A DNA stretch of 32,000 nucleotides from Acaryochloris marina MBIC11017. Its GTDB lineage: Bacteria > Cyanobacteriota > Cyanobacteriia > Thermosynechococcales > Thermosynechococcaceae. Each line of letters begins with the position of its first letter. The stretch's first letter is position 1. The position numbers and the translations under genes were made by a program. The stretch lies in the NCBI RefSeq assembly GCF_000018105.1, contig NC_009925.1:6300001-6332000 (forward strand), in the 5' to 3' direction. Below the pieces are notes generated by a model that was not told the origin of the DNA, did not search any database, and saw nothing but the letters and a program-made list of their open reading frames with translations. Below, piece by piece: positions 13,744 to 31,891 of the stretch.

Positions 13744-14200
13744 TTACCCTTGGATAAAGAAAATATGTCGATATTCTATATTTCTTGATAAAAAAGAGTC
13801 CTTGAAACCGTTATGTGGAAACTCCTCTAATGAAAACGATAAAGTTTTTGCCTTGGTGAAATTCGCTACTGCCTGTGTACTGAAACTCTTAGCCTTGATC
13901 TCAATAATGAAGGCATGGTAGACGAAGCGATCTATTGCGGCTACCGTCATCGAAGAATCACAGAAAATACACTACCGCGTTGAGAAAGGATGATTAGCTG
14001 TAATCTTGAAAGAACGACGCTCATACCGATGAACAATAAGCTCAGACTGTATAGATGTTTCATCATCCGTCTTTATGTCATAGCCAATTTCATCAAGGAT
14101 GAATAACTCAAAGTGGTCCAGCTTAGCTAGAGTTGAAGCTATTGTTACGACAACAGGTACTGACCCAAGTCGAAAGAGCAGATTGCTGAGAGGATTGGAG
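13744..14200 (-). pseudogene. istB (IS21 helper ATPase) pseudogene, 5'-truncated with an in-frame stop
   Basis: The minus-strand translation is ...LAKLDHFELFILDEIGYDIKTDDETSIQSELIVHRYERRSFKITANHPFSTR*CIFCDSSMTVAAIDRFVYHAFIIEIKAKSF. It aligns to the intact IstB at 8350..8620. There is no Walker A region, and the stop falls where the conserved Trp is. Confidence 0.8.
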
Positions 14201-14278
14201 CTTTGCTAGGTCAGGAGCGGGTGAGTAAGGTTTGGGGGTGATGAGAGTGTTTAGATTTTTGTGTAAGCAGCAGTGTAT

Positions 14279-15438: not shown

Positions 15439-16921
15439 CAATGGCACTGACTTAAGAAGTCAGGAAAAAGCTACAAGTCTTGATAGATATAGGATCAAGA
15501 CTTGCACGCCATAAACTTCTGCCTTTCACTATGTCTGAGTCAGCCGAAATTCTCAAGCAGCAATTTTCCCAAAGCCTGGGTTTACCGTGGACAGATATCC
15601 TTCCAGCCTCAAGGTTAGAGGAACTCCTGAAAGAAGAAGCATTCTCCTATCGCAACCGGATATATAGCCCCATCGTTACGCTGTGGGCCATGCTTTACCA
15701 AGTGCTATCAGCCGATAAAAGCCTTCGTAACACAGTCAAATGCATCACGACTTGGCTCACAGCGGCTGGCATCCAACCGCCCTCATCTGATACCGGAGCC
15801 TACAGCAAAGCCAGAAGTCGCTTTCCAGAGTCACTGTTGCAACGTTTAATTCCCGAAAGCGCTGAGTGCTTAGCGCAACCCCTCTCCCCAGAGCACCTCT
15901 GGTGTGGTCGGCCCGTCAAGGTCTACGACGGAACCACCGTGTTGATGGCTGATAGTGCGGCCAACCAAGCATCATATCCACAACATGGCAATCAAACAGC
16001 AGGCTGTGGTTTTCCCATCGCTCGCTTGGTAGTGTTCTTCTGCTTGGTTACCGGTGCAGTGGCGTCAGCTTGTATTGCCTCCTGGGACACCAGTGAAATT
16101 GTCATGAGTCGTTTGCTCTATCAAGACCTTGAGGTCGGTGATGTGGTCATGGCGGACCAAGCTTATGGCAGCTATGTTGATCTAGCCATCATTCAACAAC
16201 ACAGGGCTGATGGAGTGTTGCGTAAACATCATGCTCGCAAGACTGATTTCCGCAAAGGCAACAAGCATGGCATTGGTGATCATCAGGTGACATGGCATAA
16301 GCCAGCCCAACGGCCTGAGCACATGAGTGAGCAAGATTTTGCCCTGATTCCTCAAACATTGGTCGTTAGAGAGGTGTGTTTGCGCTTATCCCTTAAGGGC
16401 TTTCGCGACCAGCACATTATTGTGGTGACGACGCTGCTGGATGCTCAACGCTACAGCGCTGGGCAACTGACTCGCTTGTATGGCTGGCGTTGGCCAGTGG
16501 CGGAAGTCAATCTGCGCCATCTCAAAACCACCTTAAAAATGGAGATGCTCAGTGCCAAAACTCCGGATATGGTGCGCAAGGACATTTGGGTACATTTGTT
16601 GGGCTATAACCTACTCAGAAGTCTCATGGAACTTGCGGCACCGCTAGCAGATAATGCTAGAACTCAACTGTCTGTGCAAGGAGCACGACAACACTTCAAT
16701 CAGATGCTTGCTTTGTTGGCGACAGCCAACCGTGCGACCAGAAAGCGGTTGTTTACTCATCTACTTGAGACCATGGCAGCCGATCTATTACCCTCTCGAC
16801 CGAATCGGCACGAACCGAGAGTCGTCAAACGCAGACCCAAATCTTTCCCGCGAATGCGACAACCTCGCTCTGCTCTCAAAGCTAAGCTAGCTGTTTGATT
16901 GAGCTTAAGTCAGTGCCATTG
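15439..16921 (+). mobile_element. IS4-family insertion sequence (1483 bp) nested in the IS256 transposase gene
   Basis: Perfect 18-bp terminal inverted repeats are CAATGGCACTGACTTAAG (15439..15456) and CTTAAGTCAGTGCCATTG (16904..16921). A perfect 10-bp target duplication AGTCCTGATT lies at 15429..15438 and 16922..16931. Confidence 0.95.
15531..16898 (+). CDS. IS4-family DDE transposase
   Basis: DDE-type motifs are VKVYDGTTVLMADS, GDVVMADQAYGSY and the Y-x2-R-x3-E-x6-K signature in YGWRWPVAEVNLRHLK. I preferred the ATG at 15531 over the TTG at 15480. Confidence 0.9.
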   Translation: MSESAEILKQQFSQSLGLPWTDILPASRLEELLKEEAFSYRNRIYSPIVTLWAMLYQVLSADKSLRNTVKCITTWLTAAGIQPPSSDTGAYSKARSRFPESLLQRLIPESAECLAQPLSPEHLWCGRPVKVYDGTTVLMADSAANQASYPQHGNQTAGCGFPIARLVVFFCLVTGAVASACIASWDTSEIVMSRLLYQDLEVGDVVMADQAYGSYVDLAIIQQHRADGVLRKHHARKTDFRKGNKHGIGDHQVTWHKPAQRPEHMSEQDFALIPQTLVVREVCLRLSLKGFRDQHIIVVTTLLDAQRYSAGQLTRLYGWRWPVAEVNLRHLKTTLKMEMLSAKTPDMVRKDIWVHLLGYNLLRSLMELAAPLADNARTQLSVQGARQHFNQMLALLATANRATRKRLFTHLLETMAADLLPSRPNRHEPRVVKRRPKSFPRMRQPRSALKAKLAV

Positions 16922-16931
16922 AGTCCTGATT

Positions 16932-17022
16932 CGCCCAGAATATCTTCCGGTTGAGGGTTCTCTCCGATGAGTTCATCTAACAGTTCATCGACTCGATTGG
17001 GAGCTTTTTTCTTTCTAGACAT
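16932..17022 (-). pseudogene. IS256-family transposase, first 30 codons (MSRKKKAPNRVDELLDELIGENPQPEDILG)
   Basis: Joining 17022..16932 to 15438..14279 (removing the IS4 element and one TSD copy) restores one uninterrupted 416-codon ORF. Confidence 0.85.
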
Positions 17023-17111
17023 CGTACGGTCTCCTGATGTGTTTGGATCCTAGACCGCTTACACAAAACTCTGAACAGTCCCGGGTGATAGGAGCCGATT
17101 ATGTTCAAGTT

Positions 17112-17519
17112 CTATCTGGTACAAAGCAGATCCATAATACCGATAAAGTCTTGATACTCTTTGCCTTCAAGCTTTGTTTTTTGAGGCACACTAATATTAC
17201 TTTGCGTGTTTTTAGTGTCTTCAGTCGTCATCTTTAAATTTGAACGAAATACTCTCCGAGCTGCACAGTGGACTTCATAATCACCCTTTGCTAGAACAGA
17301 CTCTCCATTCTCCCGATAAAACATCGAAAGACGAGCCTTAATCACACTCTCTCCCGAGAGTTTAATTCTCTTGAAACTATGCGACTCCATATCAACTCTG
17401 GCCTCAGTGGTTCCAGATGTCGAGCTAAACAGGTTTTCCCAAGGACTTGCGAGTGTTGGTTTTGCGGATACGAAGCAGAAGAGAATGGAAAGACCTAAAA
17501 GGGAGGTAGACCTAAACAT
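17112..17519 (-). CDS. Hypothetical small secreted protein
   Basis: It has an N-terminal signal peptide (MFRSTSLLGLSILFCFVSAKPTLA) and no recognisable domain. Confidence 0.5.
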   Translation of the reverse strand: MFRSTSLLGLSILFCFVSAKPTLASPWENLFSSTSGTTEARVDMESHSFKRIKLSGESVIKARLSMFYRENGESVLAKGDYEVHCAARRVFRSNLKMTTEDTKNTQSNISVPQKTKLEGKEYQDFIGIMDLLCTR

Positions 17520-17825
17520 AGATTATGAGTATTTTTGATGATGTGAAAGAAAGTGCTCCGAACAATAATGCTACCTGAAAAGTAATTTAGAAACGTTATC
17601 CCAATTCAAATAGGTTTGGGGTAGCCCGGAAACAGTCTACTGGGGAGGTCATACACATAATCCATCCTAGCGTGCCCAAATTAAGGGAGTATTAGATCAT
17701 AAGGGATCATAAGGATGAAACATAAGCCATTAATGAGTCTTCATCCCCAATAAGCCTTTCCCTAGCTGGTATTGACATCCTCTTCCAGCCAACCTAACGA
17801 AATGGCTAGAGATCCGCTGCGTCAA

Positions 17826-17971
17826 ACTGACATATTTAGGTTAATAACAGTAGCTCAAACAAAAATAGCAGAGGAGGAGAATACAAGTAACCTTCTCAAT
17901 TAAGGAAGCTTATTATAAGAACTTATAACTACGCTTATAAGAAACGCGCTTCCCAGTCTGTACATACCCGT
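17826..17971 (+). promoter_or_regulatory. Conserved upstream leader shared with 28030..28117 (putative promoter and 5' UTR of DUF4157 paralogues 1 and 3)
   Basis: ACTGA(C/G)ATATTTAGGTTAATAACAGTAG...AGAATACAAGTA...TTAAGGAAGCTT aligns by eye between the two loci. The homology continues into the coding regions. Confidence 0.5.
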
Positions 17972-19429
17972 GTGCCTCGACCGTCTGAAGTCAAGTCATC
18001 AGTGCAGCCTCCGCTTCAGGCAAGGTCGAATGAAGAGGATTTAGCTGAACATGCTGAGCGATTGAAAAAGTTTCAGCGGCTGGGTAGTTCGATGATACAA
18101 ATGGGTCCACCCAGACTTGATAATAATAAGACCAATTCAATACAACCCAAACCTTGGATTCAGAGGAAGCTAACACTTGGAGAACAGGGAGATAAATATG
18201 AACTGGAAGCAGATCGGGTTGCATCTCATGCGGTTCAACAGATCAATGCCCCTGCTTCTAAACCATCAAATCTAGAGCAGTCAGTGCATCATCTAGAGTC
18301 TGCTATTAGTAGTGCAAGAGGTAGTGGACAGCCATTGGATGCGAAATTGCAACAGTCAATGGGTCAAGCGATGGGTGCAGATTTTAGCGGAGTGAGGGTC
18401 CATACCGATGCTCAGTCTGATCACTTAAATCAATCGATTCAGGCCAGGGCATTTACAACGGGTCAAGATGTTTTCTTTCGAGAAGGGGCTTATCAGCCGG
18501 GGAATCGTGGAGGGCAAGAGTTGATTGCCCATGAGCTAACTCATGTAGTGCAACAGGATGAAAATTCTCTGTCATCTATATCTGAATCATCACATTCTAA
18601 ACAGGTCAAACCCAGCAAAACTAACAGAGAGCAACAAATAAGTCTCAGCGTAAATCATGTTTCGCCCAAACATATCAACATTCAACGTGTAGTTACAAGT
18701 ATTGAATGGAGTGATGCAAAGGAAGTTCAAACTCTTGAAGTTGAGGGGCGACCTCCAGGAACTCAAGGAGCTCATACAACAGCATTTGTTGTTTTTGTAC
18801 AAGGTTTACGTAATCGCTTATTTAAGAAAAATTTTTCTGATGTTCTCAAAGAGCTTAAGACAATGACTGCTGAGATCAAGAATCTACCAGGCTTTTCTCA
18901 AAGCACAAAATATATGCAAAATTTTGTCAAAGATGCAGTCGATAATCTTATTAATAATATTGACACTGCTATTTTAAATATAGGAACAACATCTGAAATT
19001 AAATATACTCAAATTATTCAGGAATTTTGCAATCAGTATCTTAGAGCTAGGAACCAAGTTCACTTTACTGCTGATAAGGATGTAAAAGGATCTTCACCTT
19101 TAGGGGAAGCAGCTAGTAACAAGGTTTTAGTTGAGTATGTAGCAGGATATATTGAGGATCCAACCGACGCAGATGCTTCAGCTAAAGCAATAGCAAAACA
19201 GAGCTTTAAGTTATTTGATTGGAAGGTTACAAAGAAATTGAAACCTGATATTGTGGCTCAACATCTTATCTCTATCGACCAGGCATTTCCAGGGATAATC
19301 CCACTTAGGAAAAAGATAGTCGCTAAATTTCTTTTACTTGTTAGTAAAAAGTATCGTAGAGAGTCAGATTCATTTGATAGGAAGGTAAAAGACATCTTAA
19401 CTGGTCAACCACTTCCTTGGATCGTTTAA
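17972..19429 (+). CDS. DUF4157 (HExxH, eCIS-associated type) domain protein, paralogue 1, with an orphan ~290-aa C-terminal module
   Basis: Motifs are PWIQRKLTLGEQGDKYELEADRVA and GQPLDAKLQQSMGQAMGADFSGVRVHTDAQSDHLNQSIQARAFTTGQDVFFREGAYQPGNRGGQELIAHELTHVVQQ (HELTH at 18530..18544). The start is a GTG, because the ancestral ATG seen in paralogue 3 is ATA here. Confidence 0.8.
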   Translation: MPRPSEVKSSVQPPLQARSNEEDLAEHAERLKKFQRLGSSMIQMGPPRLDNNKTNSIQPKPWIQRKLTLGEQGDKYELEADRVASHAVQQINAPASKPSNLEQSVHHLESAISSARGSGQPLDAKLQQSMGQAMGADFSGVRVHTDAQSDHLNQSIQARAFTTGQDVFFREGAYQPGNRGGQELIAHELTHVVQQDENSLSSISESSHSKQVKPSKTNREQQISLSVNHVSPKHINIQRVVTSIEWSDAKEVQTLEVEGRPPGTQGAHTTAFVVFVQGLRNRLFKKNFSDVLKELKTMTAEIKNLPGFSQSTKYMQNFVKDAVDNLINNIDTAILNIGTTSEIKYTQIIQEFCNQYLRARNQVHFTADKDVKGSSPLGEAASNKVLVEYVAGYIEDPTDADASAKAIAKQSFKLFDWKVTKKLKPDIVAQHLISIDQAFPGIIPLRKKIVAKFLLLVSKKYRRESDSFDRKVKDILTGQPLPWIV

Positions 19430-19623
19430 AGAAGATGTATACAAAAAACAAGAATTGTGAATGGTTTAGTGAATTGTATATCTCACAGAATATATGGCGC
19501 TTTCTAACATAAGAAGTAACGCATTTAAAGCATAAGGTGGTCAACACCTCGACGATCTTAACGGGTCTTTGGATAAAACCCATTATCATTGCTGTGGACA
19601 CGTTTGTAACTCTTCTTTAATAA

Positions 19624-19866
19624 GTACGGTACCAATTCTGGATCACCATCGAAGGTAGTGGTAAGCCATTCATCAAAATTTCGTTTGAAACGCCCGAGTT
19701 TTGCTTCGAGTGCGCTTTGGAGTTAGAGAATACGTTCGATGTGTTGCAGGTTTTAAGTCTGCGGCCAGGGGAAACTCTCGAGCGGATTGAGGAGATGATC
19801 GGGGTGTGGTTGGATCGGGAGCGGGTGGCGAAGGTTTGGGGGTGGGAAATCCTTAAAGTGCGGTAA
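19624..19866 (+). pseudogene. 3' two-thirds of the conserved ~285-bp unit (compare 31682..31891); no start codon
   Basis: Its translation VRYQFWITIEGSGKPFIKISFETPEFCFECALELENTFDVLQVLSLRPGETLERIEEMIGVWLDRERVAKVWG... aligns to the end of ORF 31247..31891. A TAA lies immediately upstream at 19621. Confidence 0.75.
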
Positions 19867-19955
19867 ATATTTCTATTTGGATTTCTACCGTAAGAAATTT
19901 TTCCGTGAGTTTAGGATTAAAAGTATGTGATTCGGTTTCAGATGGGAGACTGTTG

Positions 19956-21842
19956 ATGAAGCGTACTCATGCTTATAAGCCAGAAAAATCTAAGTCACAA
20001 CCGATACCTCAACCAATATCATCAGATCAAGCTCAATCAGCAACACCAGTTCCTCCCCCCCTTCAAGCCAAAACAAATGAAGAGGGTTTGGCTGAATGGA
20101 AAGCTCAACAAGAGAAGTGGGAAAGGTTTGGAACGCCTTGGAAAGATAAGGTTCCCAATCCATCCGGAGAATTGGTACAACCCTGGATTCAGCGGAAGTT
20201 AACCCTTGGACAACCGGGAGATAAGTATGAACAGGAAGCGGATCGGGTTGCTTCCCAGGTAGTACAGCAAATTAATGCCCCTTCTTTATCTCAATTCAAT
20301 CAAGGGCAATCTGTACAGCAAGAGAAAGAACTGGAAGGTGAGATGCAAGCGAAAAGTCTTCGTGCTGCTATCCAGCGCCGTCAAGCAATGACAAATGAAG
20401 AAGTATCATCAGATTTGGAGTCTACTATTAATAATGCTAAGGGCGGTGGACAGCCATTGGATGTTGGATTGCAACAGTCAATGGGTCAGGTGATGGGTGC
20501 TGATTTTAGTGGTGTGAGGGTGCATACAGATCCCCAGTCCGATCAGTTAAATCAATCAATTCAGGCGCGGGCATTTACAACAGGTCAGGATGTATTTTTT
20601 CGAGATGGAGCCTATCAGCCAGGAAATCGCGGAGGGCAAGAGCTAATTGCCCATGAGTTAACCCATGTGATTCAGCAAAATAATTCAACAATTCAAAGGA
20701 AAGGAGGTCAGGGAAGGTTTGGGAAACAAAAAAATATGAATCGTCTTCCCAGTAATCTTCAGATTGGAATAGAGTCCCTTTCGGGAATTTCAACAGACGA
20801 CATAACAGTCCACCATAACTCTGGTGAACCCGCCAAAGTTCAGGCTTTAGCTTATACGGAAGGTACTGATATCTATCTTGCGCCAGGTCAGGAAAAACAT
20901 CTTTCTCATGAAGCTTGGCATGTTGTACAACAAAAACAGGGGCGGGTTAGACCAACAACACAAGTGGGAGGTGTTGCCGTTAATAATAATCCACAACTAG
21001 AACGAGAAGCAGATGTGATGGGGGAGCAGTCAAAAAGAGTAGGTAATTTTAGTAAATCTAAAGCAATTAAAGTCAGTAATACCATTAATCAACGAGAGAA
21101 ATCATTGCGACGAAAACCATCCTCCTCGCCAATCATTCAGCGCATGGTAGGAATGAACTCTAAAGGAATTAATAACGAGATCAAGAGTTTGACGAGTGAT
21201 CCTAAGAATATCCTGAAACTGACTGAAGCCTATACATTTATGCAGCATATCTCCTGGGCTCATAATATTGTTGGAGGGCAACTTTTTGACATGAGTGACC
21301 CTAAATTCAATAACATTGGCAAGAGTGAAAATTTAATTCTTGTGGCTCATGGTCTGGAGGGGCAATCAGGCCCATATGATGGTGCCACAATTGCTGGATT
21401 TTTAGCAGATAAAAATACAGGCGTTCCGCTAGATTGGGAAGGAAATGTATATATAACTTCCTGCTATTCAGGAGCAGGAGCTTCTCCATTAGTGAAGCAA
21501 GTAGCAGAAAGCTTAACTGTTCTCGGGAGAGATAAAATAACTGTAACAGGCTATGCAGGAACAACCGTTACTCATAAAGAATTTGATGAAGTTATTTTTG
21601 TTGTTGATCCTAAAAAAGAAAAAGAGTTTAAGAAGATTTCAGATTCTGTTTCACTTAAGTATAAGCACTTGTTTACTGAGTGGTATATGAAAATACAGGG
21701 TTTGAAACCTAGTAATGTTCTTGAAATGGCGGATTACACATCAAATCTTACTGCTGCGGCATACAAAGAAATGGTAGAACAGGCTGCTAGTCAAGATATC
21801 TTCTTAGATGAAGATCATGGAGAAGTGTCTAGTACTTCTTGA
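19956..21842 (+). CDS. Tandem DUF4157 domain protein, paralogue 2, with a C-terminal caspase-like (clan CD-like) His/Cys domain
   Basis: The first DUF4157 has HELTH at 20652..20666. The second is ISTDDITVHHNSGEPAKVQALAYTEGTDIYLAPGQEKHLSHEAWHVVQQKQGRV (HEAWH at 20907..20921). The C-terminus has NLILVAHG (His 21348) and NVYITSCYSGAG (Cys 21462). I chose the ATG at 19956 (GGGAGA 8 nt upstream; MKRTHAYK matches MRTHQYAHK of paralogue 3). Confidence 0.85.
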   Translation: MKRTHAYKPEKSKSQPIPQPISSDQAQSATPVPPPLQAKTNEEGLAEWKAQQEKWERFGTPWKDKVPNPSGELVQPWIQRKLTLGQPGDKYEQEADRVASQVVQQINAPSLSQFNQGQSVQQEKELEGEMQAKSLRAAIQRRQAMTNEEVSSDLESTINNAKGGGQPLDVGLQQSMGQVMGADFSGVRVHTDPQSDQLNQSIQARAFTTGQDVFFRDGAYQPGNRGGQELIAHELTHVIQQNNSTIQRKGGQGRFGKQKNMNRLPSNLQIGIESLSGISTDDITVHHNSGEPAKVQALAYTEGTDIYLAPGQEKHLSHEAWHVVQQKQGRVRPTTQVGGVAVNNNPQLEREADVMGEQSKRVGNFSKSKAIKVSNTINQREKSLRRKPSSSPIIQRMVGMNSKGINNEIKSLTSDPKNILKLTEAYTFMQHISWAHNIVGGQLFDMSDPKFNNIGKSENLILVAHGLEGQSGPYDGATIAGFLADKNTGVPLDWEGNVYITSCYSGAGASPLVKQVAESLTVLGRDKITVTGYAGTTVTHKEFDEVIFVVDPKKEKEFKKISDSVSLKYKHLFTEWYMKIQGLKPSNVLEMADYTSNLTAAAYKEMVEQAASQDIFLDEDHGEVSSTS

Positions 21843-21891
21843 AGGCTATGTTTTTTAGTGAATATTTCCTGAACGTTTGTTCATTATCTAA

Positions 21892-21985
21892 AAGAATTTA
21901 GTTCAGCAGACTAAGCAAAAAGACCAGCTTGAGTATCTGACCGTTTCCCGAAGCAATTCAGAGAAATTCTAGATCACTGTGGAGC
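21892..21985 (+). pseudogene. 5' third of the conserved ~285-bp unit (compare 31607..31700), with TGG to TAG at 21970
   Basis: KNLVQQTKQKDQLEYLTVSRSNSEKF*ITVE aligns to KNLVQQTKQNGQLEYLAVSQSSSGHFWITVE of the full copy. Homology fades after about 21985. Confidence 0.7.
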
Positions 21986-22536
21986 ACCAGTGTATAAAAT
22001 AAATCCTTTATTGATGGGAGCAGCTAAAGGCTCGAAACCAATAAATAATGACCTCAATAACCAGTTTCATTTACGAAAAACTCTCACTTTATCACTAGAC
22101 GTCATCGCAACTTAAATCGCATTGCAATCGGCGGTAACTAATTCTTCTCTAAAAATCGGAAGATATGCCTTGGAATAACAGGTTATATCCCGAATAGTCG
22201 CGTTTATATCTTGTCCAATAGACATAAGAGTATGCTTATTTATCTGAATATAGAATCGTAATTCCATGACCGAATCTAATCTGGGTATCGACCGTAAGCA
22301 TAGACATAAGAGTCTCTTAAATTCATTCTATAAATAGAAATTACTTGTTACATACGCTAAGGGTTTTATCGTTTAGACTCAGGATTAAAACAATTTCTCA
22401 AATCAAACTCATATGATATTTAATTGAAAATCTGATTTTGAGATGGCATCCTAGATCTCTCAAAAAAGTCTTCTATCAGATCCATCACAATCATTTTATT
22501 AAGATGCATATTTCTTGAAATTACGGGGGTATCTTT

Positions 22537-23913
22537 ATGAATCAAAATAATGGTCCAAACTGGGACTATATCGTTAGAGATGGATGCAGGATCTACCAGT
22601 CTGGAAGCCATATTGACGGGAACTTCATCCGAGTTTATACACCCGAGGAGATTCCCTCAAAGAAAGAAAAAATAAAAGCAATCATCTATTTGCATGGCTT
22701 TGCATTATGCATGCCCAAATTCTATCAAGACCACATTTTGTCACTGGTTAAACAAGGCTACATTGTCTTTTTCCCCGATTTTCAAAGAAGTGACTATCCA
22801 GATGATGTTGAAACTGAAAAGATTTGCAAAGAAACCTACAACAAAAATGATTTTGGTTTCTGGTTAACCGCCTCAAGCAAAGTCGTGACAACAACCCTGA
22901 AGCCACAAAAGACCTTCGAGCGCAGGATGGTCTATCGGGATGACCAATTATCCAAAAAAGAGCAAGATAGTATCTGCGGTAGTTTTGAGGAACCTAGCTT
23001 ATCAAGATATCGCCAGGTCTCTATTGCCTTGGTTGTTTTATTGGGTTTACTCAATTTAATTGCTTGGTTCCGAAAAAATTACGGTAAAAACCTAATAAGG
23101 TTGATCTCAACGGTTGGGTGGAGTTTAGCTGAAAAACCCCCTGAATGGATTAAACATGCCATGACCTTGACGGAGAATGCATGGAGGCAAATCTGCTCGG
23201 ATAATCCAAAATTGGCTCCAGACAACATTGAGTTTTATGTGTTTGGTCATTCTCTGGGTGGATTACTCGCCTTAAGCTGGCCCTACTATGTCCAAGAAGA
23301 AGGCAAACACTTATTAGCACCCAAACAAATTCTGGTTGCGGATCCGGCCCCAAGCACTGAAATGGGGATTCCCTGGTTTGGAATTTTGATCTTGAAATTA
23401 TTTAGATCTCCCTTTGCAAGAGAACCCATAACGATTAGCAAAACAGGTCCAAAGTTAAACGTCCCTGTTGGCATCATGCATGGAGCTGATGACAAGCTGG
23501 TCAAACCGCAAACTTGGGTCGAAGGGAAACCCTCTAACTTTCATCAGATTGCTAGCACCGATAAGGCCATTTATTTTTCCCTCTCCAACCAGAAGAATGA
23601 TCCACCTCTGATTGCCTTCCACAACCAGGCAGTAACGGATACAACGTATTTTGATGATGATCTATTTGATAATTTTGGTGGCGTTAAAGATGGGCCAAAT
23701 GCTTACAATGGCGAATTTATCTGGCCAGGGTTTGATTTTGTTCTCAGTGGACAGGCAAGTGCAAATCAACTGCTCACGAGATTTCCTTTACACAAGATTC
23801 AGGTCACGGATACCTTACCTGACAACAGCAGTCTATTCAGTCGGCCCCTCATCCGAGTTGCAACTGCCCTAATAGCTTTGGGGGTTGGCTACTGGTTATT
23901 GCGAGGGGTCTAA
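22537..23913 (+). CDS. Membrane-associated alpha/beta hydrolase (chlorophyllase / PAF-acetylhydrolase-like motifs)
   Basis: KAIIYLHGFALCMPKFYQDHILSLVKQGYIVFFPDFQ is an oxyanion-region pattern. The nucleophile elbow is FGHSLGG (Ser codon 23251). There is an internal hydrophobic segment (VSIALVVLLGLLNLIAWF) and a C-terminal one (VATALIALGVGYWLL). Confidence 0.75.
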   Translation: MNQNNGPNWDYIVRDGCRIYQSGSHIDGNFIRVYTPEEIPSKKEKIKAIIYLHGFALCMPKFYQDHILSLVKQGYIVFFPDFQRSDYPDDVETEKICKETYNKNDFGFWLTASSKVVTTTLKPQKTFERRMVYRDDQLSKKEQDSICGSFEEPSLSRYRQVSIALVVLLGLLNLIAWFRKNYGKNLIRLISTVGWSLAEKPPEWIKHAMTLTENAWRQICSDNPKLAPDNIEFYVFGHSLGGLLALSWPYYVQEEGKHLLAPKQILVADPAPSTEMGIPWFGILILKLFRSPFAREPITISKTGPKLNVPVGIMHGADDKLVKPQTWVEGKPSNFHQIASTDKAIYFSLSNQKNDPPLIAFHNQAVTDTTYFDDDLFDNFGGVKDGPNAYNGEFIWPGFDFVLSGQASANQLLTRFPLHKIQVTDTLPDNSSLFSRPLIRVATALIALGVGYWLLRGV

Positions 23914-23995
23914 AATTTGTTCGATTCCTAGGGCCGGACAAATTATCGCCTACAGATTCTCAGCTCAGGCAGACACAAAGGGAGTGGTTAAGATC

Positions 23996-25555
23996 ATGAA
24001 ATTCCTCAACAATATTTTCAATACACTCCTTTGTCGGTTGACCTCCATAGTGCTGATAGGTTTACTGAATTTGTTGGGTGTGCAAATTCAACCTGTTGTC
24101 GCAGGACCTAACAATAGCCCTTGTACATCTTCCAATCCACAATTGGCCCAACCATGGTGTATACCCACTACATTGACCCTAAGTTCTACTGATGCAGATC
24201 AAGAGCAGTACGAATACTATGACTTTATTTGGAGAACCTTCATTGCGCTCAATTGGCCGAATGTTCCCATCACCGTCGAGGGTAATCAGATCGTTGAGGG
24301 GTTTCGAGGAGAGCCCGATCCGACGATCAATATTTTGGACCAGCAAGGTAATGGGCCTCTCAAACAATCGGTTTGGGAAAATTATCGTGAACCCAGCTCT
24401 GAAATATTTCTCCCACCTGAAGATTGGGATAACTATCCAGAATGGAATACACCCAGACCACCAGTGGCTGATAGACCAAATAATCAGCGGTTCTTGAAAA
24501 ATTTTGATGGCTTAGTGGAGTACGCCGCTGATATTAACCAGCCTTATTTTTATCCCAATTTAACCGGGCCATTAATCGATCAAGCGGGCAACTTTGTTCG
24601 CTATGAAGTTGCCACCAATCAAGCCTTTTTTACCTATATTCAGCACTCTCGCTACTATGATACCCAGCAACAAAAGGAAGACGTAGCGCGTTCCATTGAG
24701 AAACCAAAGGATAAACAGTCAGGTTTCAAACGTCCTCCCTATGGAGATGAGGCATACCTCCGAAATCTCAAACCCTTTGCCAAGCAGGGCTTTATTGATG
24801 TGAAAGCAGCTTGGCGAGAGCTGAAGGAAGACGATCCTCTTGAGCGTTACTTACATCGAACCTTGGTCGTCGATCATCAAGGAACCCAAAAGATGATGGG
24901 ACTGGTTGCCTTGCATGTTTTTAGATACACCTTGATTGACCAAAATGGCAAGATCACGCCAGGGTATGTTGGCGCTACCTTTGAACAGGTAGATAATGTG
25001 GAATCGAGTCCGGGTATAAAACCGTCTTTTAATACGGGGTCCAAACCATCTGAGGTTCAAAAAACCTTCGGTTTTTCTGGGGATATCCCCACCACCGCTT
25101 CCAAAGATAACCCTAAACCTCAATCACCAGTGTCAATCTATCGAGTGACACCTATCCCTGGTAGCGACGTCTTTTGCCCACCCCCTAACCAAACGCAAAA
25201 ATGCCCCCCAGCTCTTAGCGTTGCCGCCATTAATGCAAAGTATCAAGAACAGCTCCAGCCTTCTGTTTTTTCCTATTACCAACTGATTGGTACTCAGAAT
25301 AAGCGTCCTGATCGGCCACTCGATTTTTCCAACCCATCAAACCGTCAGTTTAACGGCCATGAAGGCCCAATTACTGGGGTCTATACCAATACAAACAATT
25401 TAATCAATACAGCTCTCGAATCATACACACAACAAAATTTTTCCTGCATCTTGTGTCACTCTCAAGCCCGTCCCCAAGGTGTTCCCAAAAAGTCATTTGA
25501 GGATGATCGCTTCAAAATCATCACCTTTATGTTGAATATGGCTCACGATAAGTAA
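23996..25555 (+). CDS. Secreted protein of unknown function with a single C-terminal CXXCH motif (paralogue A)
   Basis: It has a signal peptide (MKFLNNIFNTLLCRLTSIVLIGLLNLLGVQIQPVVAG) and an AAAGGGAG Shine-Dalgarno sequence 11 nt upstream of the ATG at 23996. CILCH is at 25445..25459. It shares several motifs with 25811..27133. Confidence 0.75.
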   Translation: MKFLNNIFNTLLCRLTSIVLIGLLNLLGVQIQPVVAGPNNSPCTSSNPQLAQPWCIPTTLTLSSTDADQEQYEYYDFIWRTFIALNWPNVPITVEGNQIVEGFRGEPDPTINILDQQGNGPLKQSVWENYREPSSEIFLPPEDWDNYPEWNTPRPPVADRPNNQRFLKNFDGLVEYAADINQPYFYPNLTGPLIDQAGNFVRYEVATNQAFFTYIQHSRYYDTQQQKEDVARSIEKPKDKQSGFKRPPYGDEAYLRNLKPFAKQGFIDVKAAWRELKEDDPLERYLHRTLVVDHQGTQKMMGLVALHVFRYTLIDQNGKITPGYVGATFEQVDNVESSPGIKPSFNTGSKPSEVQKTFGFSGDIPTTASKDNPKPQSPVSIYRVTPIPGSDVFCPPPNQTQKCPPALSVAAINAKYQEQLQPSVFSYYQLIGTQNKRPDRPLDFSNPSNRQFNGHEGPITGVYTNTNNLINTALESYTQQNFSCILCHSQARPQGVPKKSFEDDRFKIITFMLNMAHDK

Positions 25556-25712
25556 ATAAGTAAGGCCAAGACTGGCCTACTGATCACTTTTTCCAATAGC
25601 AAAGGTTGCTGTTGGAAGACTGTCTAGGCTTCAACTTCCAGACTCAATACCTAAGTGAAACCGTATGATGTGTTTACCGAAACCGGCATTAAATTTTCTA
25701 TGGCCTGATTTG

Positions 25713-25744
25713 AGCACCCAGCAATAGGTTTGATACTGGGTGCT
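25713..25744. terminator. Perfect 9-bp stem-loop between the convergent genes (AGCACCCAG - 14 nt - CTGGGTGCT)
   Basis: The stem-loop was read directly. No U-tract follows on either strand, so terminator function is only suggested by its position. Confidence 0.3.
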
Positions 25745-25810
25745 GGGGTCATTGCTAGTTCGTTTTGCAGAAGGCTTCAAGAAAATGAACTGCTCAAGTC
25801 GATCAGGGTA

Positions 25811-27133: not shown

Positions 27134-27184
27134 ATTTCAAAGAACCAAACTCAGTATCTATTCAATGAATAAAATTATGTGTAT

Positions 27185-27607: not shown

Positions 27608-28029
27608 AGTCTATCTCCTCATCAAAAAAATAGGTATATTTAGGATATTAATATCAATAATTTCCTATAATTTATTTCTATAGCTTCAGCTATATAATTC
27701 TCAAACTAGTCAATTTTTGCGAACTAAATTATCAAGGAAATTTATTTTCATCAGTATGAGTATTTAGTTATAGTCATCCATCTTATGAAATCAGTCGACT
27801 CAATGGATTAATGCTCAATTTTTGGTGAGATTCGAAGTTATTCTATGTATTAAAAGTGAATATGACAATATTATAAATTTTAACTAAATAGCTCTGAGCT
27901 AAATCTAGATTTTTATCTTTGGTCTTATAGATTCATATGCTGTATTTTTGAAATATCATATTTTACCTATATTCAGCTCAATTTTTTGGAAAATTAGCGT
28001 TTAGAAAGATATCAAAAATAAAGTTCTAG

Positions 28030-28117
28030 ACTGAGATATTTAGGTTAATAACAGTAGGAAAAACAAAATAAATGCGGGAGAGAATACAAGTAGCCTATTG
28101 AAATTAGGAAGCTTGTA
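28030..28117 (+). promoter_or_regulatory. Conserved upstream leader shared with 17826..17917
   Basis: See feature 17826..17971. It sits at the end of a ~510-bp, very AT-rich divergent intergenic region. Confidence 0.5.
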
Positions 28118-31066
28118 ATGAGAACTCATCAGTACGCTCATAAGAAACGAGCTTCCCAGTCTGTCCGTACCCCAGTCTCTCGACCTACTGAAGTCCAGGC
28201 ATCAGTGCAACCTGCTCTGATACAGGCGAAATCGAATGAAGAGGGACTGGCTGAACATGCTGAGCGGTTGAGGAAGTTTCAGCGGTTGGGTAATTCAATG
28301 ATGCAAATGGGTCCACCCAGACTTGATAACGATACGACCAGTTCATTACAACCACAACCTTGGATACAGAAGAAGCTGACGATTGGGAAGCCAGGGGATA
28401 AGTATGAACAAGAGGCAGATCGAGTTGCATCTCAAGTGGCTCAACATATCAATGCCCCTACTTTTAAAGAAAACAGTATGAGGGAGTCGATTCAGCGCGA
28501 GAAAGACTTAGAAGGTGTAATGTGCGCGAGAGGTTTTCAAGCTGCCATCCAGCGAAAGCAAGCAATAGAAAGTGGAGAAGCATCACCTGATTTAGAGTCT
28601 GCTATCAGTAGTGCGAGGGGCTGTGGACAGCCATTGGATGCAGGACTGCAACAGTCAATGGGTCAGGCGATGGGTGCAGATTTTAGTGGTGTGCGGGTGC
28701 ATACGGATGCCCAGTCAGATCAATTGAATCAATCCATTCAGGCAAGGGCCTTTACGACGGGACAGGATGTATTTTTTCGTTCAGGAGCTTATAAACCCGG
28801 AAATCGAGGAGGCCAGGAGTTGATTGCTCATGAGTTGACTCATGTGATGCAGCAGAATGGAAAGATGGTGCAGCGACAAAGTGAATGTGAAGAAGAACTC
28901 TTGCAAAGCAAATTTGCTGCTGGTAGGATGCCGACTCAACTCCAAACTACCCACACTCCTAGTGAAAACCGCACGGGGATGCTGGATGCTTTGAATGCGG
29001 AGGATGATGCTTCTTACCAGTGTTTAGCCGGCACTACAGGAACAGCAGCAGTTACTCAAAAAAGTTCTGACCTCAGTCCTGCCTCTCAGTGGGATTTTGC
29101 TAAATATAAAAACGGATTCACATCAGATTTTAATGCAAACGTGCCTATTCAAGCGAAGATCGTTGTAAGTAAGGAACAAATCACCTATCCCGATTGGGAA
29201 AATGCTTACAAGGGGCTAAAGCAGAGCACATCTTTAACTCTGAGTGGAAAATTTACAGATAAAGATGACTGGATGATCCGTTTTGTTTTGTATGCAATGG
29301 ATCAGGAAAACGAAAAATTTGTGAACTTTATGAATTTTGAGGCAGTTGTACTCGATCGAATAACTAAAGGCTGTTGTAACGCTACCCGTCATCGAATTTT
29401 AAGTGGTTTGGAAATCAATAATGACTTTGAAACTCTTTATAATGCATTAACTTCCAGGCAATTTTTCGGAGCCGATGTTGGGAAAGAGACCACTCCCAAG
29501 GAAGCGAAAAATATCTTTAAAAATGCTCTACAGCAAGGTTATCGAAGATTTGATACAGCTTCAATATACACTATGGAAGGTGGAGGATCCACTCTTGAGG
29601 CTTTAATGGCAGCAGCCAAAGAGCTGACAATTTCTCGGGAAGAACTGACCATTCTTTACAAAGTCAAGCCAGAAAAAGGGAAATCTATTGATGGGCAAAT
29701 GGAGAGTTCTAAGAACGCCCTGAGTAATCTTCCTGATATTCTCATGCTGCATGAAATAGATGACATTGAGAAAGCAAAAAAGGATTTAGGGGATTTAATT
29801 GAACTGGTAAAGATAGGAAATTCTAAAGCAGTTGGTGTGAGCAATGTCAACGCAATTTACCTTGATATACTTTACCAATTTTCTCTTCAGAAGCAAGTTC
29901 CAATCACCTATGTCGAAAATCGTTTCACTCCTTATTATCCTGACACAGAGGTCCGGGATTACTGCAAAAAAAATGGTATCAAATATTTAGGTTTTGGGAT
30001 CATCGGAAGCGCACAAAAAGGGGTTTGTGAAAACGATGGACAAGGGCTTCCCTCACAGTATCTTGTTGCATTGATGGATCCTCGTCTCCAGAAACTTGCC
30101 GAGAAATGGGGTCTGAAGAATGAGGCTTCAAATGGGGTAGGTGAATTGCTTTATGCCTGGTCTGCTCATAAAGGAGTGGCTCCTGTGGCTTATTCAAGTG
30201 ATCCTGGACGACAAGCAAAAAATTATGCTGCAAAGAATATCCGACTAACCCGTAAGAACCTAGCAGAAATTGATGCAATCGTCTTGAAGCCTCGGAATAT
30301 CGAAGAAAAAGAATGGGGGGACTCAGAATCTGAAGTAGCTCTCAAGAGTTTATTTGCTTCACTAACACATCCTACTGCCTGGTTTTTGATGAGTGAAGTA
30401 TGTGATTCTGGAGGTGGCAAATTGGTCAATGCCATTGCAATGAGGATTATTGACGAGTTTAAAGAAAGTAAGAAGCAAAAAGAAAAACTTCAAAACTTTG
30501 TTTGGAATTTTATGCGTTTCGCTGCGGATCTGCAAGCTAAGGCAAATCCACAAAGAAAAAAATGGTTCAGTAGTATGAAAGGGCTTTTTCGAGCAATGAG
30601 TGAGGCTGCCCAAAAGTCACCCAAGATATTTGACTTGAGTTATGAATGGGCTATGCGATCTAGTGAAAAAGGAGGCGATGCTCAAAATGCTATTCAGCGA
30701 GTTGAACAGGTTTTAAACGGAGAGTATGTGCCCTCACATGATCCATTGACAGAAAGTGGCAAATCTAACCTTGAGGAAAAGAAAAAAAAGGATGAATTGA
30801 AGGCACTATCCATAAAGGAGGCTAAATTTGAGAAAGTTAGCTTAACTGAGACAATAGAAAATCTAACTATACAAGAGGTAAATAAACAATTTACTCCGGA
30901 AGATGAATCATACAAAATTTTTATGTGGATACCCGATCTGATGAAGATGCAAATTAATGGTAAATCAATCGATGGAACGATTGTCTTGAGCAGGAAGGAA
31001 AAAATAAGATACAAGATCTACGTTCAAAGCAAAAATCCCAAACTCTATCGTTTGGAGAAAATTTAG
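28118..31066 (+). CDS. DUF4157 (HExxH) domain protein, paralogue 3, fused to an aldo/keto-reductase-like domain and an orphan C-terminal region
   Basis: The N-terminal ~250 aa are collinear with paralogues 1 and 2 (HELTH at 28829..28843). About 29455..30290 is AKR-like (GYRRFDTASIY...ILYKVKPE...ILMLHEID...KAVGVSNVN...PITYVENRFTPYYPD...YCKKNGIKYLGFG...LLYAWSAHKGVAPVAYSSDP). Confidence 0.85.
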   Translation: MRTHQYAHKKRASQSVRTPVSRPTEVQASVQPALIQAKSNEEGLAEHAERLRKFQRLGNSMMQMGPPRLDNDTTSSLQPQPWIQKKLTIGKPGDKYEQEADRVASQVAQHINAPTFKENSMRESIQREKDLEGVMCARGFQAAIQRKQAIESGEASPDLESAISSARGCGQPLDAGLQQSMGQAMGADFSGVRVHTDAQSDQLNQSIQARAFTTGQDVFFRSGAYKPGNRGGQELIAHELTHVMQQNGKMVQRQSECEEELLQSKFAAGRMPTQLQTTHTPSENRTGMLDALNAEDDASYQCLAGTTGTAAVTQKSSDLSPASQWDFAKYKNGFTSDFNANVPIQAKIVVSKEQITYPDWENAYKGLKQSTSLTLSGKFTDKDDWMIRFVLYAMDQENEKFVNFMNFEAVVLDRITKGCCNATRHRILSGLEINNDFETLYNALTSRQFFGADVGKETTPKEAKNIFKNALQQGYRRFDTASIYTMEGGGSTLEALMAAAKELTISREELTILYKVKPEKGKSIDGQMESSKNALSNLPDILMLHEIDDIEKAKKDLGDLIELVKIGNSKAVGVSNVNAIYLDILYQFSLQKQVPITYVENRFTPYYPDTEVRDYCKKNGIKYLGFGIIGSAQKGVCENDGQGLPSQYLVALMDPRLQKLAEKWGLKNEASNGVGELLYAWSAHKGVAPVAYSSDPGRQAKNYAAKNIRLTRKNLAEIDAIVLKPRNIEEKEWGDSESEVALKSLFASLTHPTAWFLMSEVCDSGGGKLVNAIAMRIIDEFKESKKQKEKLQNFVWNFMRFAADLQAKANPQRKKWFSSMKGLFRAMSEAAQKSPKIFDLSYEWAMRSSEKGGDAQNAIQRVEQVLNGEYVPSHDPLTESGKSNLEEKKKKDELKALSIKEAKFEKVSLTETIENLTIQEVNKQFTPEDESYKIFMWIPDLMKMQINGKSIDGTIVLSRKEKIRYKIYVQSKNPKLYRLEKI

Positions 31067-31246: not shown

Positions 31247-31891
31247 ATGTTGATAGCTGAATATTTACTGATGACTCCCCAACTCATCTCACTGAAGCCC
31301 AAACCACCAGCCCAAGCCAAGCTGACACCCTCGATAAGCATCGAAGCAACCCCCACATACCCAGACAAGGCATCATTCTCAACCATCGACCGGAAAGATG
31401 ATCTTCCAGTGAAGTGCAAGGCAGCTCCAGAGATTGAAGACGATGATCGCACTACTGGCACCACCACCAGATACGACCAAAGTGAACCCACCGACACACG
31501 GAGAACCCAGCGAGGGTATTCAGCTCGACAAATACCAGGAAGAGTCAGACCTCCCAGAGTATCCAGAGAATTTGAATCCAAATTCCACGCACTCGAGTGC
31601 AGGCAGAAGAATCTGGTTCAGCAGACTAAGCAAAATGGGCAGCTTGAATACTTGGCCGTTTCCCAAAGCAGCTCGGGACACTTCTGGATCACCGTCGAAG
31701 GCAGTGGAAAGCCATTCATCAGAATTCCATTTGATACAGCAGAGTTTTGTTTCGAGAGCGCGTTGGAATTAGAGGACACGTTCGATGTGTTGCAGGTGTT
31801 GAGTCTGCAGCCAGGGGAAATTATTGAGAGAATCGAGGAGATGATTGGGGTGTGGCTGAATCGGGAGCGAGTGGCGAGATGTTGGGGTTGA
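31247..31891 (+). CDS. Hypothetical protein; only the last ~95 codons (31607..31891) are conserved in the partial copies at 19624 and 21892, and the true start is uncertain
   Basis: The ORF is open from 31247, but its N-terminal 120 codons are low-complexity and compete with other frames. The conserved part is KNLVQQTKQNGQLEYLAVSQSSSGHFWITVEGSGKPFIRIPFDTAEFCFESALELEDTFDVLQVLSLQPGEIIERIEEMIGVWLNRERVARCWG. Confidence 0.4.
   Translation: MLIAEYLLMTPQLISLKPKPPAQAKLTPSISIEATPTYPDKASFSTIDRKDDLPVKCKAAPEIEDDDRTTGTTTRYDQSEPTDTRRTQRGYSARQIPGRVRPPRVSREFESKFHALECRQKNLVQQTKQNGQLEYLAVSQSSSGHFWITVEGSGKPFIRIPFDTAEFCFESALELEDTFDVLQVLSLQPGEIIERIEEMIGVWLNRERVARCWG

Follow-up and report, generated by a model that had tools for sequence, protein, structure and literature searches.

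The 32-kb window analyzed here is a stretch of Acaryochloris marina MBIC11017 DNA that carries three DUF4157 genes. The middle gene is flanked by two parts of a repeat in circularly permuted order, which overlap around a TTCT(G/A)GATCAC core, and a fuller copy of the repeat follows the third gene. Is the segment around the middle gene a mobile cassette that entered the locus by recombination at the core, or did the permuted order arise in another way? A preliminary description of the locus had likened the segment to a cassette. The features concerned are listed below in window coordinates; "unit gene" is our name for a 206-codon Acaryochloris gene, and eCIS_core (PF13699) is the domain formerly called DUF4157.

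14168..14241, plus strand: third remnant, unit gene nt 548-621, with the stop codon kept as its end
17972..19429, plus strand: P1, DUF4157/eCIS_core protein gene 5' of fragment A
19430..19632, no strand: left flank, from the P1 stop codon to fragment A
19633..19845, plus strand: fragment A, 5'-truncated remnant of the unit gene, nt 409-621, codons 137-206
19846..19955, plus strand: spacer between remnant A and P2, conserved together with the remnant and the P2 N-terminus in four other Acaryochloris replicons
19956..21842, plus strand: P2, DUF4157/eCIS_core protein gene with two eCIS_core domains, mosaic
21890..21984, plus strand: fragment B, internal remnant of the unit gene, nt 335-429, both ends truncated
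21985..22536, no strand: right flank, from fragment B to an alpha/beta-hydrolase gene
28118..31066, plus strand: P3, DUF4157/eCIS_core fused to an aldo/keto reductase domain
31271..31891, plus strand: intact unit gene, 621 bp, 206 aa; A and B are partial copies of this gene

Identity of the repeated sequence

The copies were aligned in three ways. A repeat finder paired piece A (19633-19844) with 31679-31890 at 83% identity and piece B (21892-21983) with 31607-31698 at 78%, and gapped local alignment returned the same ends. An nhmmer profile built from ten full-length unit-gene copies matched fragment A (19633-19844) as gene nt 409-620 (E = 7.6e-68) and fragment B (21890-21984) as gene nt 335-429 (E = 1e-21; counterpart 31605-31699). 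It also detected a third fragment, missing from the preliminary description, at 14168-14240 (gene nt 548-620, E = 2e-6); this remnant, which the repeat finder placed in family D9, ends 37 bp before an IS256-family transposase ORF (14279-15403, minus strand). All three methods bear out the positions first given for the repeat halves around the middle DUF4157 gene, and the three core coordinates are likewise right: TTCTGGATCACC lies at 19636-19647 and 31682-31693, and the variant TTCTAGATCACT at 21967-21978. The permuted order is real, as is the overlap: by precise alignment both fragments contain nt 409-429 of the gene, some 21 bp that include TTCT(G/A)GATCAC and correspond to codons 137-143. 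Over nt 412-429, A and B are identical at 13 of 18 positions. The region is 99.99% identical to the chromosome of strain MBIC10699 and 99.8-100% identical to independent Logan contigs, indicating that the arrangement is not an assembly artefact.

What the preliminary description called a ~285-bp unit is not a unit. It is the 3' 46% of the 621-bp ORF at 31271-31891, and 31607 appeared to be its start because fragment B happens to begin there. The majority of Acaryochloris plasmids carry the ORF in conserved form, from its ATG through its stop codon (about 80% amino-acid identity). It is found almost only in Acaryochloris, with one or several copies on nearly every plasmid, and the family is small, a profile search of 1.8 billion proteins having yielded only 52 relatives. 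Pairwise comparison of full copies gave dN/dS values of 0.05-0.14 at dS values of 0.28-0.77. Judged by these values, the unit gene is a multi-copy and probably functional gene under strong purifying selection; the conserved ORF and the selection on it rule out a non-coding repeat.

The unit protein has no Pfam match. Its AlphaFold model (mean pLDDT 59) predicts a disordered N-terminal half followed by a C-terminal domain composed of a helix, three strands, and two helices, and a fold search with this low-scoring model gave only weak dsRBD-like matches (probability 0.33). The core corresponds to codons 138-141, within predicted strand E138-144. Residues W139, I140, and T141 hardly vary among the copies, and E143 and G144 not at all. 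The core is therefore coding sequence for a near-invariant F/Y-W-I-T motif inside a predicted beta-strand, and the overlap resembles a conserved core only because that motif is encoded there. We also considered whether the short forms that start at the core are a stand-alone gene for the C-terminal domain. This was rejected, since the break falls inside the predicted beta-strand and the short forms in fragment A and in the related loci L009b and L010 have upstream in-frame stops or no canonical start.

Both fragments in the window are decayed. In fragment A the stop codon is mutated from TGA to TGG, which leaves the frame open to 19866; in-frame stops lie immediately 5' (19621-19623), and a canonical start codon is lacking. 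Fragment B has an in-frame TAG (21970-21972) in place of the Trp codon within the core, and an in-frame TAA (21889-21891) overlaps its first two bases. The full copy closest to A is on plasmid pREC1 of MBIC10699 (92.7% identity, dS 0.16), versus dS 0.77 to the window's own full copy. The best matches of B are likewise plasmid copies (88.6% to L003), versus 78% for the window's own copy. Fragments thus are not most similar to the neighboring full copy, which suggests that they were imported. The divergence of A from full copies is of the coding type (dN/dS 0.05-0.38), as expected if the fragments were cut recently from functional copies.

These distances bear on the simplest local scenario, a tandem duplication of a unit gene plus toxin gene within the chromosome, followed by decay of the redundant units. 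Such a duplication would account for the direct orientation of all unit copies in the window and their periodic layout, and for the N-terminal blocks of P1, P2, and P3, which are 63-82% identical before the proteins diverge. However, A lies far from the window's full copy and near a plasmid copy, B too is closer to plasmid copies, and an upstream region common to P1 and P3 (repeat families D8 and D12) is absent from P2. We consider this scenario very unlikely.

Break points, flanks, and the proposed recombination site

If the core were a recombination site, unit fragments should end there. Break points were compared across 22 distinct related loci. Sixteen fragments retain the gene's 3' end, with 5' ends at nt 33, 223, 242, 267, 409, 411, 421, 460, 480, 490, 522, 548, 548, 555, 558, and 575, and further pieces span nt 428-504, 470-594, 237-277, and 2-588. 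Fragments range continuously in length between 46 and 589 bp. A 21-bp stretch holds four 5' ends (nt 409, 411, 421, and 428) plus the 3' end of B (nt 429), where about one end would be expected, although P is only about 0.07-0.09. A hotspot simulation requiring at least three of the other end points in nt 405-440 gave P = 0.07, and the core is not a significant break hotspot at that value. Moreover, no inverted repeat of at least 7 nt was found at or around any of the three copies of the core TTCTGGATCAC. A coding motif with no inverted repeats and scattered ends around it does not behave as the recombination site first proposed. The end points are those of a widespread repeat with scattered truncation points, the very outcome that the preliminary description had named as contrary to its own idea. 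Its alternative, a tandem array trimmed twice at the same spot, survives in part: an array trimmed from two sides comes close to what the comparisons indicate.

The 3' end is kept by 16 fragments and the 5' end by only one. This 16:1 asymmetry is inflated, since the N-terminal half is poorly conserved and short 5' fragments from it escape detection more easily.

The flanks were searched for traces of an unoccupied site. The left flank (19430-19632) has no relative in any searched collection, plasmids included. In the right flank only 22032-22120 has a relative, an 89-bp piece beside a transposase fragment on plasmid pREC2 that begins 47 bp past B; against plasmids, the right-flank region matches through fragment B and this one piece only. 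An IS end adjoining B was considered on the strength of the 89-bp match, which proves nothing. Neither the joined-flank pattern nor the right-flank pattern alone had a match in metagenomes. The sister strain MBIC10699, the only genome found with the same locus, has the identical filled arrangement, and the empty site that a cassette should leave was found neither there nor among plasmids and metagenomes. An ORF running across the hypothetical empty site was set aside, the open stretch of 75 aa having a chance probability of about 0.18 by rough estimate. Among species-representative genomes, a first scan gave no match and a second only three divergent loci, all from metagenome-assembled genomes.

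Pfam scans covered 24 of the larger ORFs of the window, among them every ORF longer than 200 aa, as well as several sub-ranges. The scanned sequences contained no domain of a tyrosine or serine recombinase, phage integrase, or resolvase; the only mobile-element domains in them were those of DDE transposases (Tn3, IS21, IS256, and IS4). Integrases are likewise absent from the modules of the related loci, and Rfam, promoter, and terminator scans of the region gave nothing relevant.

In its full form the cassette proposal starts from a circle that joined P2 to a unit piece (nt 335-621). A site-specific recombinase would have cut this circle at the core, and the opened circle would have entered the DNA separating P1 from the hydrolase gene as a 2.35-kb mobile gene cassette with one core per end. 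The permuted order, with nt 409-429 at both junctions, fits this proposal, as do the length of the segment (19633-21984, 2352 bp, a multiple of three) and the three other fragments that begin within 20 bp of the core. Direct unit repeats around toxin genes elsewhere could also yield circles by recombination. Against these points, the core lacks inverted-repeat arms and encodes a conserved motif, its two copies in A and B mismatch at 5 of 18 positions, the window holds no tyrosine or serine recombinase gene, and the sister strain is filled. Insertion right behind a DUF4157 gene, moreover, fits an array rather than core-directed entry into unrelated DNA. Together with the comparisons of toxin genes given below, this makes the proposal highly improbable.

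Toxin modules on other Acaryochloris replicons

All three proteins match PF13699 (P1, E = 1.6e-32; P2, E = 6e-42 with two domains; P3, E = 2.8e-32). P2 is annotated as a protein of 628 aa in the sister strain (AP026075), its maximal ORF starts at 19905, and an exact-protein look-up returned no record for it. The C-terminal domain of P1 has no relative in the plasmid collection. P3 ends 204 bp 5' of the intact unit gene. P2-type N-termini with different C-termini occur in strains CCMEE 5410, S15, and NIES-2412 (81-92% amino-acid identity), the N-terminal block common to P2-type genes extending to about 20678. The C-terminal block (20396-21853) is 90.7% identical to Logan contig L020, which joins a P3-like N-terminus to the C-terminus of P2 and has no B fragment downstream. 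The presence of this C-terminal half behind another N-terminus indicates that P2 is a mosaic.

The junction upstream of P2 is shared with other replicons. Positions 19639-20678 form one block with L018 (86.6%), 19720-20678 align to L017 (89.6%), and 19638-20681 align to the S15 plasmid locus L004 (83.7%); in L010 the toxin gene is preceded by the same spacer motif as P2. Before the P2-type toxin gene, L018 has the full-length unit, L004 nt 33-621, L017 nt 490-621, and L010 nt 558-621. These alignments indicate that the link between the unit 3' end and a P2-type toxin gene is ancestral. They also dispose of the 2.34-kb segment as a discrete cassette, since the homologous unit-toxin junction has other left ends in these four replicons (nt 1, 33, 490, and 558) and the C-terminal half of P2 exists without B in L020.

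Similar layouts recur. The order in L010 is fragment, toxin gene, polyprenyl synthase gene, and fragment (nt 411-619), and that in L017 is fragment, toxin gene, CdiI_5 immunity gene, and fragment (nt 555-620); L011 and L012 have similar layouts. No ORF of at least 45 aa lies between P2 and the hydrolase gene, the position at which the CdiI_5 gene follows the P2-type toxin gene in L017. A unit copy or fragment lies within about 1.5 kb of the DUF4157 gene at 9 of the 11 loci examined. DUF4157 genes in Acaryochloris behave as exchangeable modules bracketed by unit-gene copies.

We therefore favor, with a probability of roughly 0.6, the reading that A and B are independent and fairly recent remnants of two different unit-gene copies (the comparison of their parentage being limited to the ~25 codons of B) in a polymorphic-toxin array built by recombination between replicons. 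The periodic layout would be a DUF4157 toxin gene, with or without a cargo or immunity gene, followed by a unit-gene remnant. In the order of events that we infer, the ancestral synteny would be a P2-type toxin gene behind a full unit gene, an order that strain NIES-2412 retains. In the lineage of the window, P1 DNA with its 203-bp tail would have been joined to the unit gene at nt 409, with loss of codons 1-136, leaving A. B would be the rest of another unit copy 3' of P2, eroded from both sides. The modules may have been assembled by homologous and illegitimate recombination between replicons, and the 21-bp overlap of A and B would be a coincidence of two break points. That coincidence counts against our reading, two independent breaks within 21 bp around one gene having a prior of ~0.1-0.2 by our own estimate. 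Such a process has been proposed before to account for the exceptional number of duplicates in Acaryochloris, recA-mediated homologous recombination between elements being the suggested route (PMC3156569).

The stop-codon boundary and known systems

A sharper boundary than the core lies at the other end of the unit gene. In 55 pairwise comparisons of full copies, homology ends -5 to +11 bp from the stop codon, the exception being a copy that has lost its own 3' end. This holds even between copies that are 95% identical, and upstream the homology extends for 72-1410 bp. In L001, L003, L009, L011, and L016 a directly oriented 3' fragment lies downstream of a full copy, and the order full or partial unit, module, and 3' fragment is found in L010, L017, L011, L001, L009, and L016; at these loci direct repeats of the gene 3' end flank inserted DNA. 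Fragment B and the L012 fragment are exceptions in lacking the 3' end. The stop-codon boundary is a stronger pattern than the core. Random decay accounts poorly for both the 3'-retention bias and the stop-codon ends, and both hint at a directed process.

One such process would be capture at the stop codon of the unit gene (...GGTTTGGGGGTGA): modules inserted serially, each bringing or duplicating a 3' unit piece, in the manner of islands at tRNA genes, of e14 at icd, or of single-crossover integration of circles that carry a 3' fragment. A would then be the scar of one insertion and B that of another, with its 3' side cut away afterwards. All 55 full-copy pairs end near the stop codon unless the 3' end is lost, and this regularity speaks for capture, as do the 16 to 1 retention of the 3' end, the five loci with a full copy and a downstream direct 3' fragment, the fragments not derived from the adjacent full copy, and unit sequence near 9 of the 11 DUF4157 loci. 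However, no integrase is consistently adjacent and none is in the window, a fixed crossover would not yield continuous lengths of 46-589 bp, the 3' end is missing from B and the L012 fragment, and the asymmetry is inflated by poor detection of short 5' fragments. Sharp boundaries could also be maintained by gene conversion limited to the homologous stretch. We consider capture a possible but rather unlikely origin of A and B. The broader claim, that the stop-codon end truly serves for gene capture on plasmids and chromosomes of Acaryochloris, with modules inserted there in tandem, seems to us more doubtful still.

In tRNA-gene islands, and in e14 or phage 21 at icd, integration takes place into the 3' end of a gene and that end is duplicated. 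The unit-gene loci resemble these in having a full gene followed by direct-orientation 3' pseudo-fragments with one 3' boundary. In contrast, there is no associated integrase at the end of the insert and no fixed crossover (fragment starts being continuous over nt 409-575), fragment lengths vary widely, and the modules are 0.5-3 kb. Integron cassettes share with the array gene-sized units in the same orientation, a recurring separator, and a short stretch common to the junctions. Here, however, the core has no attC-like imperfect palindrome, the window has no integrase gene, and the separator is a coding fragment with variable ends; neither an adjacent IntI gene with attI nor identical boundaries or empty sites were found.

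CDI cdiA-CT/cdiI and Rhs arrays are polymorphic toxin loci with displaced orphan modules. As in those arrays, the N-terminal region is conserved and the C-terminal domains attached to it vary, at least one relative has an immunity gene immediately after the toxin gene (CdiI_5 in L017), and modules on the same strand are split by truncated conserved pieces usable as homology for swapping. Unlike in CDI and Rhs loci, the truncated pieces come from a separate neighboring gene rather than from the toxin gene, the context is not one of two-partner secretion, T6SS, or Rhs, and the N-terminal marker is DUF4157. The conserved N-terminus with swappable C-terminal domains that marks polymorphic toxins is seen in P1-P3, their relatives, and L020.

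As described by Geller et al. (2021, PMC8213781), toxins associated with extracellular contractile injection systems (eCIS) carry DUF4157 at the N-terminus, with a long and variable C-terminal part behind it. P1, P2, and P3 all have this architecture, with an N-terminal PF13699 domain. The scanned ORFs of the 32-kb window include no eCIS structural genes; none has a sheath, tube, baseplate, or spike domain. Repeat-bounded modules are not described in PMC8213781. The unit gene also fits the paralogue expansion of Acaryochloris (Miller et al. 2011, PMC3156569) in having paralogues on different replicons under strong purifying selection, although the abstract of that paper makes no mention of the unit-gene family or of a DUF4157 link.

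A DUF4157 cassette system would have meant a novel type of mobile element, which the evidence does not support; the array looks like ordinary recombination debris. If the capture reading were true, the unit gene would be an integron-like or icd/e14-like platform with no recognizable adjacent integrase, at which each insertion leaves a 3' unit fragment, A being one scar and B another, later eroded. In either case, the locus shows a highly duplicated cyanobacterium assembling and reshuffling arrays of putative injected toxins, and it identifies an uncharacterized gene family, nearly confined to Acaryochloris, whose stop codon borders a variable region in almost all of the replicons examined.

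A split protein-coding repeat around P2

The arrangement considered here lies around P2, the middle one of three genes encoding DUF4157 (eCIS_core) proteins. Positions in the intact repeated gene, called the unit gene, are given as nt.

14168-14241: third unit-gene fragment, nt 548-621, up to the stop codon
17972-19429, + strand: P1, DUF4157 gene
19633-19844: fragment A, nt 409-620, profile E = 7.6e-68
19956-21842, + strand: P2, DUF4157 gene with two eCIS_core domains
21890-21984: fragment B, nt 335-429, profile E = 1e-21
28118-31066, + strand: P3, DUF4157 gene
31271-31891, + strand: unit gene, intact, 621 bp, 206 codons

A repeat finder matched 19633-19844 to 31679-31890 (83%) and 21892-21983 to 31607-31698 (78%), and gapped local alignment gave the same ends. 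A nucleotide profile made from ten full-length unit-gene copies and scanned across the window recovered both pieces plus the third fragment, which is absent from the preliminary description and whose stop codon is 37 bp before an IS256-family transposase ORF (14279-15403, minus strand). The order around P2 is unit 3' part, gene, unit 5' part, with nt 409-429, including the core TTCT(G/A)GATCAC, common to A and B. The permuted split repeat with a shared core was thereby borne out. An assembly artefact is ruled out because window 16922-32000 is 99.99% identical to the chromosome of the sister strain MBIC10699 (AP026075) and Logan contigs from independent runs match the region at 99.8-100%.

The repeat had been taken for a unit of ~285 bp, but the repeated element is a 621-bp protein-coding gene. 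The window's full copy sits within an ORF, and a plasmid collection search delimited the repeated stretch as 31271-31896, a 621-bp ORF running from ATG through the stop codon. Twelve Acaryochloris plasmids carry one or more copies at 77-85% identity and two further plasmids carry divergent ones; the plasmid annotations call the product a hypothetical protein of ~206 aa. Protein searches found relatives in Acaryochloris only, plus two Logan sequencing-run assembly sequences; a profile search found just 52 among 1.8 billion representative proteins, and no Pfam domain was present in ten relatives scanned. Between full copies dS is 0.28-0.77 and dN/dS 0.05-0.14, which marks the gene as functional and kept by purifying selection.

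The AlphaFold model (mean pLDDT 59) has an N-terminal half predicted to be disordered and a predicted C-terminal domain of helix 99-122, strands 127-132, 138-144 and 147-154, and helices 157-170 and 181-205. A fold search gave weak matches only, the best of them (probability 0.33) to double-stranded-RNA-binding domains. The core corresponds to codons 138-141 (F/Y-W-I-T) in the second predicted strand, where the protein is most conserved: W139, I140 and T141 are nearly invariant, E143 and G144 fully so. In B the core's Trp codon is TAG. As the core encodes this conserved motif, its conservation needs no DNA-level explanation.

Break points and the proposed cassette

The core had been proposed as a recombination site bounding a ~2.34-kb gene cassette. 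The same nucleotide profile was applied to 28 fetched loci, 22 of which were distinct related loci, from strains S15, 'Moss Beach', CCMEE 5410 and NIES-2412, the sister strain MBIC10699, three metagenome-assembled genomes and one Logan contig. Fragments keeping the 3' end begin at nt 33, 223, 242, 267, 409 (A), 411, 421, 460, 480, 490, 522, 548, 548, 555, 558 and 575, and pieces without it span 335-429 (B), 428-504, 470-594, 237-277 and 2-588. The stretch nt 409-428 is the left edge of this wide spread and no isolated peak; by simulation, at least three of the other end points fall in 405-440 with P = 0.07, and four end points share some 30-bp window with P = 0.48. No inverted repeat was found flanking the core, and no tyrosine or serine recombinase gene is encoded in the window. 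With break points this scattered, the core is not supported as a recombination site; across the loci scanned the element is a repeat of wide occurrence truncated at scattered positions, which the preliminary description had itself named as refuting its idea.

The 2.35-kb segment is conserved as a unit nowhere among the relatives compared, since these stop at 20678 or, in Logan contig L020, match the C-terminal part without B. Four other replicons align as one block with the unit 3' end, the spacer (110 bp) and the N-terminus of P2:

L018, NIES-2412 contig: full unit, nt 1-621
L004, S15 plasmid: nt 33-621, with transposase genes adjoining
L017, CCMEE 5410 contig: nt 490-621
L010, S15 chromosome: nt 558-621

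This shared block indicates that the A-to-P2 link is ancestral, A deriving from a full unit gene upstream of a P2-type toxin gene, and that the left end of A (nt 409) is one of five truncations that differ between lineages. Homology of the four relatives to P2 runs to 20678, where the conserved DUF4157 region also ends, and their C-termini differ from that of P2. The C-terminal 1.46 kb of P2 (20396-21853) is 90.7% identical to L020, which has a P3-like N-terminus and, past the stop codon, unrelated sequence without B. This joining of a P3-like N-terminus to a P2-like C-terminus shows that toxin genes recombine within the conserved DUF4157 region. With relatives differing in left end, C-terminus and presence of B, the segment does not hold up as a cassette.

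Nothing in the plasmid collection or fetched loci is related to the left flank (19430-19632), and the right flank has a single match there, 22032-22120 (89 bp), beside a transposase fragment. This stretch, 47 bp past B, is 79% identical to sequence of MBIC10699 plasmid pREC2, ~100 bp upstream of the transposase fragment there, and could be an IS-end remnant. A pattern joining both flanks and a right-flank pattern had no match in metagenomes. The search thus gave no empty site, and the only other genome with the locus, MBIC10699, is filled identically, bar one IS4 element. This IS4-family element (15440-16921, 1482 bp including an 11-bp duplication) is precisely missing from otherwise 99.9% identical sequence, which makes it a recent insertion polymorphism. 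Mobile elements are plentiful in the window, with a Tn3 transposase fragment, IS21, IS256 and IS4 elements and a group II intron domain. The intron domain (Rfam RF00029, 48 bits; 202-278) is immediately upstream of a Tn3-family transposase ORF (297-1097), itself truncated.

The stop-codon boundary and the source of the fragments

A stronger pattern than the core emerged from 55 pairwise comparisons of full unit-gene copies with 1.5-kb flanks (window 31271-31891, L001-L005, L009 and L015-L018). Homology ends -5 to +11 bp from the stop codon in 55 of 55 pairs, bar copies that lost the 3' end, and does so even between 95%-identical copies; upstream it extends 72-80 bp, in some pairs ~450-1410 bp. 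Because homology always ends there, the stop codon opens a variable region on every replicon examined, and the junction looks like a real recurrent recombination boundary. In the profile scan 16 fragments kept the 3' end and only one the 5' end, an asymmetry to which detection bias may contribute, the 5' half being less well conserved. A dedicated insertion mechanism at the junction seems unlikely; recombination limited to the homologous stretch may leave the same boundary. Right after the window copy's stop codon, 31892-32000 encodes in another frame a pentapeptide-repeat-like peptide (SLDGANLIVINLCGTNLEEA), a region weakly linked by tblastx to a pentapeptide-repeat gene of L002.

Most differences between full copies and the fragments A, B, L009b and L010 are at synonymous sites (dN/dS 0.05-0.38), so these fragments were cut fairly recently from functional copies. 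Generally the adjacent full copy is not a fragment's closest relative: A is nearest to the plasmid pREC1 copy (92.7%, dS 0.16) and distant from the window's own (dS 0.77), and the nearest matches of B are other plasmid copies. These distances argue against simple local tandem duplication and fit exchange between replicons, a process proposed for the unusually large number of Acaryochloris duplicates (PMC3156569).

A probable array of DUF4157 toxin genes

DUF4157 marks toxins tied to extracellular contractile injection systems, whose C-terminal toxin domains are variable (PMC8213781). A unit copy or fragment lies within ~1.5 kb at 9 of the 11 DUF4157 loci examined, the exceptions being L013 (IS-truncated) and L019.

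Layouts at related loci (unit nt in brackets)
L010: toxin and then polyprenyl synthase, between fragments (558-620) and (411-619)
L011: a divergent full copy, then a hypothetical gene, the toxin and polyprenyl synthase, closed by a fragment (522-620)
L012: toxin followed by a hypothetical gene and a fragment (428-504)
L017: toxin and then a CdiI_5 immunity gene, between fragments (490-619) and (555-620); full copy further on

From left to right the window holds the fragment at 14168, two IS elements, a minus-strand ORF of 135 codons, P1, A, P2, B, four further ORFs, P3 and the full copy, so that A is at once downstream of P1 and upstream of P2, and B downstream of P2. This fragment-toxin-fragment layout is the architecture of a polymorphic-toxin array.

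The polyprenyl synthetase gene between DUF4157 gene and unit fragment in L010 (1648-3903) and L011 (13470-16182) is an unexpected conserved 'cargo' partner of a toxin-type gene in two Acaryochloris replicons. In P3 (982 aa) an N-terminal DUF4157 is fused to an aldo/keto reductase domain (PF00248, E = 7.6e-24); as the C-terminal 'cargo' of a putative injected toxin, such a domain is unusual. Elsewhere in the window, ORF 9133-13566 (minus strand, 1477 aa) encodes an inverse-autotransporter beta domain and beta-helix; it contains tandem repeats (9317-10347) of five 90-bp copies, then diverging 120-132-bp periods.

The preliminary description was accurate in what it observed, and its reading of a cassette with a core is not supported. 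We favor, with a probability of about 0.6, that two copies of the multi-copy unit gene left A and B as independent remnants within an array of DUF4157 toxin modules built by recombination. The 21-bp overlap between A and B would then be a coincidence (prior roughly 0.1-0.2), which seems striking only because it falls on the unit gene's most conserved codons.
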